Shown: piece after piece, positions 12,001 to 15,000 of the stretch
Numbering within the stretch: the stretch's first letter is position 1
Layout: every line of letters starts with the position of its first letter
Source: Escherichia phage Evi
DNA: 40,019 nucleotides
Strand: one strand, 5' to 3'
Sequence record: LR597642
Made by a program: the position numbers

Positions 12001-15000
12001 TCACCGGGCGTCCGCTGCCATCGCTGCGCATGACAACTTCCCCGGCCTCTTCATTCACCAGCGGAATGACAAAACCAAAAATATTAATGAGGATAAATAC
12101 ATGCCAGTCCATCAACTCAATGGGCTGGCCTGCCAGCGCCCCTTTCACATGGGGCACAAATTTGTAGAAATTCAGGATGTGCTGCGCACGGGGTTCACTG
12201 AAATAAATCCCCCGCTCTTCGCCGTACTTCAGATCATCAAGAAAACGCTGGCAGGCCAGACGGACAAATTCGCCAGCGACAATTTCTCCTGCAACAACAC
12301 GTTCGGCGTAGCGGATCCCGTCAGCCACTTTTGCCATCAGTCTCTCGCTTTTAAAAGCTCCGCCAGCGGATCAACATCATCCGGTCCGGCGGTATTTACT
12401 TTAGCCCGGCTTGCCGGTGACATACCAAACTCTGCAAGCATCGCCCGGATCCGCTTCCAGGCATCCGCCTTCATCGCAGCAGCCGGGTGTGCCTTGATCA
12501 GCACATCACCGTTCTGCGTTTCCGTGCGGTAGGTATAACCCTCAGCATCAAGTGTTTCGCAGTGATGCCGGTATTCGGTGTAGGCTTCCACCAGTAACTC
12601 GAGTGCACGCGCATCAAGCTGAGAAATGATCCCTTCCGCATTCAGTTCTTCCGCCATTCGCCTGAACCAGTACTTCCCCTGCGACCCTAAATGTTGCGGA
12701 ATTTTAGGGAGACCTTTTTCATCCTTTTTAGCGGTTTTTTTTGGGTCTTTAACGGGGCGCTTTGAGGGGTTGCCTCGTATCAAATGCAGGCGTGGCGGGG
12801 TTTTCGGGGGTCCTGACATAATCGGTTTTACCTATCAATCATTTAATCACATTCCAAAAAAAACCGCTAAAAAGGATGAAAAAGGTCTCCCTAAAATTCC
12901 GCAACATTTAGGGTCGCAGGGGAAGTACTGGTTCAGGCGAATGGCGGAAGAACTGAATGCGGAAGGGATCATTTCCCACCATGAGCTTTCGGAATGATGT
13001 GGTCCACAGTTCTGGCTTCAACGGCTCTCCCATTGCGCAGGCAGTTCTGACACAGATGATTATCACGCTTCAGTATGCGCGCACGTATGGCATCCCATTT
13101 CGAGCCATAGCCACGCTGGTGGCGACTCAGTCCGCGTTGATGCTGTACCCATCCTTCGCCACGATGTTTATCGCAGTAACCAGAACTGTCAGTGGTTGTA
13201 CCTGCACATCCACGCTTACGGCAGGCGCGTGGGATTCGTGATGGCATAAATACCTCATACCCTGCGAAATGTTTACCACGATAAAAAGGCTACTTAATGC
13301 ACTGAGTGCGGATATACTCCTGTGCCCCTTCCAGTTGCTTCTGCATCGTCATCAACCGTTCTCTGAGGGTGAAATAATCCCGTTCAGCGGTGTCTGCCAG
13401 TCGGGGGCTGGTTGCATTATCCACGCCGGAGGCGGTGGTGGCTTCACGCACTGACTGACAGACTGCTTTGATGTGCAACCGACGACGACCAGCGGCAACA
13501 TCAGCGCGCAGAGTTTCATTTTCAGCTTTCGCATTGGCTAATTCTCTCGAGTACTTTGCATCGAGCGCAGCAACATCACGCTGACGCTGCTGCATGTCAG
13601 CGATGGTGGCGATCGCCTGCTTCAGCTCACTGACTTTTTTATCACGCTGTTCTTTGTAGGCGATGGCGTTATCACGGTAATGATTGACCGCCCACGACAG
13701 GCAGACGATGATGCAAATAACCAGAGCATAAATAATCGCGGCGACTCTGCTCACTGATCTATCCCCCAACAGGCTAATGCGCTTTCCTGGTCACGACGAA
13801 TAACCTGTCCATAGCAGTTATTTGAACGTATGCGGCAATCGCGCCCACCATCTTTTATCCACCAGCGAATCGCCTCGCATGCGCCCTTACGATCACCGGC
13901 ATTCAGCCGCTTATAAAACGTCGACGGAAAACACTTACCGGGGCCAATGTTATAGGGACAAAATGACGCGATCCCCGCTTTTTGTGGTTCTGTCAGTGGC
14001 ACTTTAATATTGCGTTCCACCCATGCCAGCGCCTTATCACGCTCAATGGCGTTAACCTGGGCGCATTTTTCCTTCGTCAGTTTCATGCCTGGAATAACAG
14101 GTTTACCATCAACCATTGTTGCCCCCCGACAGATGGTCCATATGCCGGAACCATCGCGGTATGCCGCTGTGTGGTTACCTTCTTTTTCGTCCAGAAACTG
14201 GTCGAGTATTTGAGGAGCAGACGCGCCTGCAGCAATCAGCGCCAGAACGGCTGCTGACAGGCCGTATTTGATATTAGCATTCATGGATATTTATCAGGAT
14301 TTATCAGTTTCTAATCTCTAGATATGTTAAGCACTCAGCCCGTCAGTGGTGGATACTGGCGTGTGTAATAAAGGGGGGATGGCTGATTACCTCTGATAAG
14401 GGAATGTAACTATGAACGGTATAGATCCATTCAAACCAATCAGTAAGCAACTTGATGTGGTATTACCACAACTGACAAAACACAACGACCTTCTGGATAA
14501 AGTGTTGCCTTTTTATATTGCTGTTACCGCGAAATTATCAGGTAAAACTCGAGAAGAGGTTCTCAAATATAACATGCTGGCTTTAGAAACAATTTTTGGC
14601 TCAGAAAAAGCGGGAAAATCACCCAAAGAGCTGGCAGAATCTCAATTTGCTTATATGACAAATATAAGAGTATCCGAAATCTTTGATAAGCTACCAGACA
14701 TTGAATAATTTCTAAGCGGCATTACTGCCGCTTTATATTTTTTCAGCCAAATCTCTCAAGAACTGTTTGGCATGTTTTACCGCAGTAACTTCATAATAAT
14801 CCAAACCAGCTCCTTCAAGTCGCTCAAGGTTGATGTTCAGATCAAAAATTTCACCGGCAAAACGTTCTTTGTCCTGTAACGTTAAGATTACCGTAACTTT
14901 ATTCTCAAAATTGCGGGTCCCTTTCACAATCAGTTCATAGTTTTTAGTCATTGTCTTACTCTCCTCTCGCAGCCTTACGCCTGTCTTCTTTAATCTTGAA

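Follow-up and report, generated by a model that had tools for sequence, protein, structure and literature searches.

The DNA analysed here (the window) is a stretch of 40,019 nucleotides from Escherichia phage Evi, sequence record LR597642, that carries its lysis cassette on the minus strand. The interval of interest is bounded by the gene of an S21-type class II (pin)holin (14956–15171, minus strand; PF04971 'P21 holin S', E 1e-32), whose stop codon occupies 14956–14958, whose transmembrane-like segment reaches a Kyte–Doolittle (KD) value of 1.85, and whose relatives are annotated as 71-aa 'class II holin family protein'. On the other side lies the gene of a SAR-type endolysin (13751–14284, minus strand; PF00959, E 3e-24), which has an N-terminal hydrophobic SAR-like segment (maximum KD in a 19-residue window, 1.78) and is followed downstream by Rz/Rz1. 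An initial annotation of the window had placed two genes between holin and endolysin, and both lie where it put them: a 72-aa ORF (14733–14951, minus strand), which runs in the same orientation as the late genes, and a 98-aa ORF on the opposite strand, here called ORF98. As the cassette is on the minus strand, this opposite-strand gene is a plus-strand gene (14412–14708), antisense to the late operon; the endolysin gene is 3' on the late transcript, and late mRNA must cross ORF98 antisense to get there.

Both small ORFs are AT-rich, the GC content over 14300–14900 being 36–41% versus 50–52% in the flanks. ORF98 has a Shine–Dalgarno (SD) sequence, AAGGGA, at 14398–14403 and is followed by an intrinsic terminator (14714–14743, plus strand), in which a stem-loop at 14714–14733 with an 8-bp GC-rich stem (-15.2 kcal/mol; z = -3.9 versus shuffles) precedes a U-run that overlaps the last codons of the 72-aa gene. 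A terminator scan found this element on the plus strand only and, with the U-run missing on the minus strand, it should stop plus-strand transcripts only. The low GC content and the dedicated terminator ascribed to ORF98 in the initial annotation are thus both borne out, and the terminator is kept in the Cronobacter copy of the locus. Are such small ORFs real genes? They are, and both are under purifying selection, with pN/pS against the Cronobacter copy of 0.13 for ORF98 and 0.29 for the 72-aa gene. The exact proteins each occur on at least about 1000 public contigs, with E. coli, Shigella flexneri and E. fergusonii among the cluster members listed for both, and the entire 671-bp module is found at 99% identity or more in 57 of 5426 complete E. 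coli genomes.

ORF98 belongs to a very small family of Enterobacteriaceae prophages that has no known fold or domain. The protein matches phrog_25324 (E 7e-61), a PHROG labelled as of function unknown, and found no match in Pfam, NCBIfam, PADLOC or PDB, nor by tblastn in 50,697 GenBank phage records; literature searches on DUF1327 (the domain of the 72-aa protein, below), HK022 'srb' and moron leaders likewise returned nothing on it. Its relatives amount to 16 clusters among 5.8e9 proteins and six representatives among 1.84e9. The full-length homologues, from Escherichia, Cronobacter, Serratia, Buttiauxella, Yersinia and metagenomes, are 57–85% identical, share 27 invariant columns and hold a steady length of 97–100 aa. 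The protein is predicted to be a soluble four-helix protein (AF2 pLDDT 85.8). Two other leads were set aside: a 1077-aa plant protein with FF-like repeats, retrieved by the ORF98 profile at E 7e-5, was judged a chance or low-complexity resemblance, and a helix-turn-helix reading of residues 37–54 was dropped because the second helix is acidic and structural support is lacking.

The DUF1327 gene and the origin of the block

The 72-aa protein is a member of the DUF1327/YdfR family (PF07041; 92.3 bits against a gathering cut-off of 25, E 2e-26), as the initial annotation had suspected when it pointed to ydfR of the Qin prophage in the same slot; ydfR does lie there, between essQ and rrrQ. The profile search and structure prediction proposed in that annotation thus placed one of the two proteins and left ORF98 in no known fold or domain. 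The PF07041 match spans positions 1–72 of the 93 in the profile, positions 73–93 and the YdfR tail being absent, and PHROG profiles of the short and long DUF1327 forms have only their first ~70 positions in common. Since the Evi protein ends where long forms continue, it is an N-domain-only short form of DUF1327. Its predicted fold consists of three beta strands and a C-terminal helix (pLDDT 77.6). The closest characterized relative is K-12 Qin YdfR (P76160), which belongs to the same Pfam family, sits in the same slot between an S21-type holin and an endolysin, and aligns through its residues 1–72 with the Evi protein end to end (BLASTP E 2e-32, 58% identity). In contrast to the Evi protein, YdfR is longer (103–118 aa) and carries the C-terminal extension; additionally, the last 19 codons of the Evi gene are of another lineage, and Qin has no convergent antisense gene, whereas the Evi gene is linked to one.

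What might such a protein do? In a 2026 report, a two-hybrid screen with RNase G yielded YdfR codons 1–72, and the 1–72 fragment also bound Rne 1–597, the catalytic half of RNase E; Rne1-598 co-purified with Strep-YdfR, as did RNA, and overproduction of YdfR altered few transcripts (PMC13232886). The fragment that binds RNase E is the very segment to which the whole Evi protein aligns, and by analogy with K-12 YdfR, at 58% identity, the Evi protein may bind RNase E as well. Co-expression with the holin, as initially proposed, is plausible from the spacing, the ATG lying 4 nt past the holin stop and a GAGGAG SD sequence lying 9 nt 5' of this ATG within the final holin codons. We picture a cytoplasmic protein whose translation would immediately follow that of the holin on the Q-dependent late transcript and which would, by homology, bind the RNase E catalytic half (and RNase G) and associate with RNA; on these grounds it would be a late accessory factor acting on RNA metabolism and not a holin, antiholin or spanin. 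A minimal 72-residue DUF1327 domain occurs naturally as a stand-alone late phage protein, and this natural form provides a clean construct to test what YdfR proteins do.

The two genes had been described as extra genes inserted into the cassette, a description that applies to one part of the interval and fails for another. A DUF1327 gene normally occupies the slot, as it does in about 2000 of the 5426 E. coli genomes, and E. coli 042 and K-12 Qin both have the order holin–ydfR–endolysin with no antisense gene. What is extra relative to such ydfR-only lysis cassettes is the block 14313–14791, comprising the last 19 DUF1327 codons, the terminator, ORF98 and its leader, and not the whole 72-aa gene. 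Homology to the 042 locus ends at 14312 and resumes at 14791. Codons 1–53 of the 72-aa gene are 84% identical to 042 ydfR versus 68% to Cronobacter; for codons 54–72, the values are 47% and 78%. This pattern places one mosaic junction, through which the block was swapped in, within the DUF1327 gene near codon 53/54.

The pair is also found elsewhere. Of 16 distinct loci, 15 have their ORF98 homologue on the strand opposite the late genes, where it converges with a small gene of the late strand that lies 2–29 nt away; this partner is either a DUF1327-short gene or a member of an unrelated ~94-aa family (the 'A2' type), homology between the two partner families having been rejected on hhalign probabilities of 0.4% and 3.9%. 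The sites include the TMP–gpM, gpM–gpL and gpI–gpJ gaps, Q–holin gaps, positions after Rz, and lysis cassettes. Because these loci span tail operons, Q–holin gaps and lysis cassettes, the pair is a mobile moron unit and is not lysis-specific.

The leader of ORF98

Upstream of ORF98 lies a structured 5' leader of ~80 nt (14335–14411, plus strand), recognized from alignments and covariation and present in one copy only in the window (nhmmer E 3e-18). In helix P1, TCAGCC at 14335–14340 pairs with GGCTGA at 14381–14386; P2 is a hairpin at 14341–14361; and in P3, an SD-like G-run at 14373–14378 pairs with an anti-SD, CCTCT, at 14390–14394. The folding energy of the leader in the window is no better than that of shuffles (z -0.15), and it is therefore covariation across related sequences that has to carry the argument for a structure. 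Across 38 distinct leaders, 94.6% of cells are paired and six of the eight P2 pairs show compensatory changes; the covariation score was reached by none of 500 shuffles, and slid controls gave 27–48%. A set of leaders of ORF98 homologues only, ascertained by protein homology, gives the same covariation picture. The strand is indicated by U–G wobbles, which fit the plus strand, and by folding energies of -20.2 kcal/mol for plus versus -13.2 kcal/mol for minus. The helices differ in what they tell us: P1 is invariant in all leaders, an invariance imposed by the search pattern in the pattern-derived loci, and as it never varies it is uninformative, and P3 is paired in just 86%. A mini-ORF within the leader, MADYL*, was rejected as unconserved, as its start position varies (ATG, GTG, CTG, ATA).

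Sequence features 5' of the leader suggest how ORF98 might be transcribed. A -10-like hexamer, TATGTT (TAnnnT; 14323–14328, plus strand), lies 6 nt 5' of P1 and is accompanied by a weak -35, TTATCA, at a 16-nt spacer. This putative promoter scores 8/12, under the threshold of a consensus promoter scan; of 82 distinct leaders, 69 have a TAnnnT hexamer at the same distance from TCAGCC. Two further readings of the 5' flank, a LexA box (CTG-N9-CAG) and a sigma54 -24/-12 element, have the wrong spacing. ORF98 would thus be an autonomous antisense unit, with a weak sigma70-like promoter and a predicted transcription start at the base of the structured leader. Within this leader, alternative pairings among a GGAGG-like decoy, the CCUCU anti-SD and the true SD would gate ORF98 translation, and the one-way terminator would keep the ORF98 transcript from entering the holin. 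With its own putative promoter, a leader and a one-way terminator, ORF98 is most likely expressed from the repressed prophage, and it would be silenced once terminator-resistant late transcription crosses it antisense toward the endolysin gene.

The leader, common to many morons, is the interesting part of this locus. Taken alone, we would have an ordinary moron beside a common YdfR-family gene; what we find is a conserved leader that stands 5' of at least 23 unrelated small cargo families, that finds no match in Rfam 15 at E<=1 over 14300–14420 (nor do the leaders of HK022, ES18 and a further locus, L025), and on which searches of the literature on moron leaders returned nothing. If functional, this leader would explain the expression and silencing of a whole moron class, and its sequence would provide a tag by which such morons can be found.

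Morons in late operons and other readings

Both small genes are accessory (moron) genes, as had been suggested for the antisense gene, and not lysis genes; morons are a known class. The block is extra DNA relative to its syntenic relatives 042 and Qin (breaks at 14312 and 14791), its base composition deviates from that of its surroundings, and it brings a terminator of its own on the plus strand. Annotated relatives are present in two phages. In Salmonella phage ES18, gp24 (DUF1327, 86 aa) and gp25 ('possible moron') have the same architecture, a late-strand DUF1327 gene converging on an antisense gene of ~95 aa, and gp25 has the same leader as ORF98 and its own putative terminator; the ES18 pair, however, lies between the tail genes gpM and gpL and not in a lysis cassette, and the cargo, gp25, shows no sequence relationship to ORF98. 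In HK022, gp23 ('srb', annotated 'moron gene product') has the same leader (88% identity over 91 nt) and is likewise a small antisense gene inserted between late genes, but its cargo is a different, 73-aa family, its site is gpI–gpJ, and it has no DUF1327 partner, an annotated gp22 overlapping it; it is a moron in the sense of Juhala and colleagues (2000). Lambda bor and HK97 gp15 are also small autonomous genes in a late operon with deviant GC content and their own signals. Unlike these membrane proteins or lipoproteins, whose phenotypes are known, ORF98 is predicted to be soluble, and they are not known to resemble ORF98 in sequence or leader.

Our preferred explanation, to which we assign a probability of roughly 60%, is that the interval contains a mobile moron unit of two genes, which entered by recombination a ydfR slot that the pinholin/SAR-endolysin cassette already had, with the 72-aa protein as an RNA-metabolism accessory and ORF98 as an autonomous antisense unit. 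Expression from the prophage is presumed for the classical morons (PMC3594210). ORF98 probably provides a lysogen benefit or host modulation. A broader proposal would make the leader, with its invariant P1 (TCAGCC/GGCUGA), covarying P2 and SD-decoy/anti-SD/SD switch, an undescribed cis-regulatory RNA and the control module shared by a large set of exchangeable small-gene cassettes, which lie antisense in the late operons of siphophages of enterobacteria and carry at least 23 cargo families, HK022 gp23 and ES18 gp25 among them. Small late-strand partners, including the RNase E-binding DUF1327 N-domain, would then be trans-acting late-phase regulators, and the outcome would be a built-in switch that turns the moron off on going lytic; we offer this proposal as a speculation that is unlikely to hold.

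Could the pair instead serve in defence, exclusion or as toxin and antidote? ORF98 made in the lysogen would harm incoming phages or the cell, and the late partner (DUF1327-short or the ~94-aa family) would neutralize it in the phage's own lytic growth. Such a pairing would fit the presence of a partner in 15 of 16 distinct ORF98 loci versus 18 of 101 leader cassettes in general, the occurrence of two unrelated partner families in the same position, the opposite expression logic that follows from the convergent geometry, and the exclusion functions that morons often encode (PMC3594210). We nevertheless consider it unlikely: the defence role raised in the initial annotation gained no positive evidence from PADLOC-DB 2.0, in which no family matches either protein at E<=1; in locus L044, ORF98 stands without a small partner; the same partner families accompany other, unrelated cargos; and YdfR is widespread without ORF98, and non-toxic.

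The control of lysis timing, also raised at the outset, is quite improbable. Here the 72-aa protein would modulate the pinholin/SAR-endolysin system and ORF98 or its antisense RNA would tune endolysin expression, for example through sense–antisense pairing with the S–R late mRNA followed by RNase III cleavage. Long-form ydfR does keep a fixed place between the genes of an S21-type holin and an endolysin, in roughly 2000 of the 5426 E. coli genomes, late mRNA crosses ~470 nt of antisense ORF98 before the endolysin gene, and a genetic screen ties ydfR to envelope integrity (cited in PMC13232886). Yet DUF1327-short and ORF98 also occur together at gpI–gpJ, at gpM–gpL and upstream of holins of other families, and that such a domain moves together with an antisense gene through lysis as well as tail operons speaks against a function confined to lysis. 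Neither protein has a transmembrane segment (Kyte–Doolittle maxima in a 19-residue window: 72-aa protein, 0.55; ORF98, 0.78; holin, 1.85), a lipoprotein signal or a match to a lysis family in Pfam, and overexpression of ydfR caused no growth defect (PMC13232886). A coupling at the RNA level, in which the partner would act as a late-phase RapZ-like RNase E adaptor that recognizes the leader RNA and directs the degradation of moron mRNAs carrying it, strikes us as equally doubtful. Last, the view of ORF98 as a hitch-hiker in decay that no longer has a function is highly improbable and already disfavoured: some copies are indeed decaying (a premature stop in L023, ATG to ATA in L038, and cluster members of 68–85 aa), but the low pN/pS, the invariant columns across five genera and metagenomic copies, and the conservation of both protein length and leader speak against it.

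Genes of the lysis interval

The lysis genes of the window lie on the minus strand, where an S21-type pinholin (14956–15171; PF04971, E 1e-32) is followed by a 72-aa ORF (14951–14733), an endolysin with a SAR-like hydrophobic N-terminus (14284–13751; PF00959) and, next, Rz/Rz1. The ATG of the 72-aa ORF lies 4 nt beyond the holin stop, and its Shine–Dalgarno (SD) sequence, GAGGAG, falls inside the final holin codons. On the plus strand, the 98-aa ORF98 (14412–14708) is followed by a terminator, an 8-bp GC-rich hairpin (14714–14733, plus; z −3.9) with a 3′ U-run that is present on the plus strand only. 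The GC content of the interval is 36–41% versus 50–52% outside. The initial annotation described these two ORFs accurately, and its coordinates, SD, low GC and terminator were all found.

Both ORFs are true genes. ORF98 has full-length homologues (57–85% identity, 27 invariant columns), and comparison with the Cronobacter copy gives pN/pS values of 0.13 (ORF98) and 0.29 (72-aa gene). The exact proteins each occur on at least ~1000 public contigs, annotated as 'hypothetical protein' (ORF98) and 'DUF1327 domain-containing protein' (72 aa); the cluster members listed belong to E. coli, Shigella flexneri and E. fergusonii. Among 5426 complete E. coli genomes, 57 carry the entire 671-bp module at ≥99% identity. 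Some E. coli module copies indicate that ORF98 occasionally decays, by a premature stop (locus L023, 4001–4210) or an ATG-to-ATA start (L038, about 3001), the DUF1327 gene remaining intact; cluster members of 68–85 aa also exist.

The ORF98 family is very small: a set of 5.8 billion proteins yielded 16 clusters, and one of 1.84 billion yielded 6 representatives at E ≤ 1e-3. Its organism-named copies all belong to Enterobacterales (Escherichia, Cronobacter, Serratia, Buttiauxella and Yersinia), the others being metagenomic. Pfam, NCBIfam, PADLOC and PDB gave no match; the sole match is phrog_25324, of unknown function. ORF98 is predicted to be a soluble four-helix protein (pLDDT 85.8), in which no membrane segment was found and for whose model we found no informative structural neighbour.

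That the 72-aa gene might belong to a known family, as does ydfR of Qin, was borne out: it matches DUF1327/YdfR (PF07041, 92 bits) over profile positions 1–72 of 93 only, and K-12 ydfR occupies the same slot, essQ–rrrQ. The N-terminal ~70 residues are the sole part held in common with several PHROG families of 105–296 aa, and the protein aligns end to end with K-12 YdfR residues 1–72 at 58% identity. In a 2026 study, a two-hybrid screen recovered exactly YdfR codons 1–72; YdfR bound the N-terminal half of RNase E and also RNase G, both Rne1-598 and RNA co-purified with YdfR, and ydfR overexpression was non-toxic and altered few transcripts (PMC13232886). Because it aligns with the fragment that binds RNase E, the 72-aa protein is a natural stand-alone form of the YdfR interaction domain; by analogy with K-12 YdfR, it may share the RNase E/RNA activity.

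The ydfR-only cassette of E. coli 042 (holin, 116-aa YdfR, endolysin) is informative about origin. Its homology to the window ends at 14312 and picks up again at 14791; codons 1–53 of the 72-aa gene share 84% identity with 042 ydfR versus 68% with the Cronobacter cassette, and for codons 54–72 the values are 47% versus 78%. These breaks, and the identity switch at codon 53/54, show that the cassette was captured by recombination inside a resident ydfR. The earlier description of two extra genes thus calls for refinement: the extra part is the block 14313–14791, which entered inside ydfR.

A structured leader shared with other cargos

The ~80 nt upstream of ORF98 (the leader; 14335–14411, plus) are better conserved than the coding DNA, one 29-nt stretch being 93% identical even to the most distant homologue. 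The leader comprises four elements: P1, an invariant inverted repeat, TCAGCC...GGCTGA; P2, a GC-rich hairpin; P3, a GGAGG-like run able to pair with CCUCU; and this CCUCU itself, which could alternatively pair with the true SD. The order is TCAGCC, the covarying hairpin, GGAGGGAUGGCUGAUUACCUCUG and SD. In 14 leaders ascertained through the protein, pairing in P2 reaches 93.8%, and 6 of its 8 pairs show compensatory changes. Across 38 distinct leaders, pairing over the whole structure is 94.6% (slid controls, 27–48%) and the covariation score was reached by 0 of 500 shuffles; leaders in these sets are related sequences, and P1 invariance in pattern-derived leaders is imposed by the search pattern. 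U–G wobbles favor the plus strand. The folding energy of the window leader is unexceptional (z −0.15), and Rfam contains no match to it.

In 69 of 82 leaders, a TAnnnT hexamer keeps a single fixed distance from P1 (the window copy ends 6 nt upstream), so that transcription would start at the base of P1, with the hexamer as a putative ORF98 promoter element. The conserved 5′ flank extends ~50 nt further, GGCGGCTACTGTCTGAATATCAGGGTGTT...CCCTGGTTAAGGT, and includes a palindrome, TTAACC-CT-GGTTAA, that overlaps the −10-like hexamer.

Scanning IMG/VR with a leader pattern gave at least 120 stretches, with true leaders making up ~70 of 92 unique matches among those listed, and nhmmer gave 105 leader matches in 100 contigs (about 100 IMG/VR loci among L049–L168). 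In prophage late regions, the leader stands in front of small genes from at least 23 unrelated cargo families, most of them 63–98 aa long. Of 101 such cassettes, 18 have a partner of the DUF1327 or the ~94-aa type. For example, it lies upstream of HK022 gp23 ('srb', 'moron gene product'; L169, 2501–2592) and of ES18 gp25 ('possible moron'; L171, 2001–2082), a gene convergent with gp24, which encodes a DUF1327 protein; it was found too in HK633, mEp213, mEp043 and SPN3UB. Morons, i.e. autonomous accessory genes inside phage genomes, and the YdfR family are a known kind, and relatives are already annotated in HK022 and ES18. The structured leader that these cargos share appears not to have been described so far and is what merits further work.

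Partner genes and proposed function

In all 16 distinct assessable loci, ORF98 runs antisense to the late genes of the phage, and in 15 of them it converges, across a 2–29-nt gap, on a small late-co-oriented partner, which is absent at one locus, L044. Six partners are 71–73-aa DUF1327 short forms that pass the Pfam threshold despite a mere 32–38% identity to the window protein. Nine belong to a second convergent family of ~93–99 aa (L004 3254–3538, L009 5316–5597, L035 4300–4599, L012 4314–4859 and others) with the consensus ...Y.E.Y......RAE..A..YC..LG.GA, no Pfam match and no homology to DUF1327 detectable by hhalign (probability 0.4% and 3.9%); the Yersinia version (181 aa) has an extra N-terminal domain fused on.

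We favor, with a probability of about 60%, a reading in which the 72-aa domain acts late on RNase E or RNA and ORF98 is an autonomous moron with its own promoter, leader control and terminator. The 72-aa domain would be made alongside the holin, and its target would be RNase E or RNA, not the envelope. ORF98 would be transcribed from its own weak putative promoter, translated under the control of the SD/anti-SD alternatives in its leader, and its transcript ended by the one-way terminator. It would probably be on in the lysogen; Q-modified late transcription would shut it off, since reaching the endolysin gene requires antisense passage through ORF98.

We consider it unlikely that the two genes, recurrently paired and with ORF98 unmatched in PADLOC, are a defence or toxin–antidote pair. 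Control of lysis timing, suggested in the initial annotation, is doubtful: the unit sits between holin and endolysin in the window, but elsewhere at TMP/gpM, gpM/gpL, gpI/gpJ and Q/holin and after an Rz fragment, and this mobility across tail, Q–holin and lysis sites argues that ORF98 and its partner are one unit and do not serve lysis. Similarly doubtful is the idea that the partner links RNase E to the leader RNA as an adaptor. That ORF98 is a dead remnant is highly improbable.

Additional observations

In a metagenomic prophage (L032, 4714–5355), an apparent HicA/HicB-like toxin–antitoxin pair, assigned by reading the sequences only, directly adjoins an ORF98 and DUF1327-short unit at a Q–holin moron site where several accessory units are stacked. 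Within the window, a 131-nt inverted repeat (12614–12744 and 12854–12984; 98% complementary, 109 nt apart) duplicates, in inverted orientation, some of the 5′ coding sequence of the gene for the small terminase subunit and appears to cut an HNH endonuclease gene (12969–13247) to 92 aa; it reflects a rearrangement or else an artefact of assembly. Upstream of the holin, the AT-rich sequence includes a weak, sub-threshold likeness to the EHEC sRNA Esr41 (15311–15401, plus; 28 bits versus a gathering score of 102), and between the holin and the tRNA/TerB region lies a stretch that strongly matches the Rfam sRNA STnc100 (15625–15811, minus; 119.9 bits, E 7e-27). Three phage-borne tRNA genes (16589–16830, minus), Arg(tct), Lys(ttt; weak Rfam score, 37 bits) and Met/Ile-like(cat), sit between the Q antiterminator (17056–17877) and the lysis genes. 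Also upstream of the holin, a 143-aa TerB-domain protein (15980–16411, minus; PF05099, E 3e-16) is probably another moron, and a Buttiauxella locus (L011) has a homologue at the same position.
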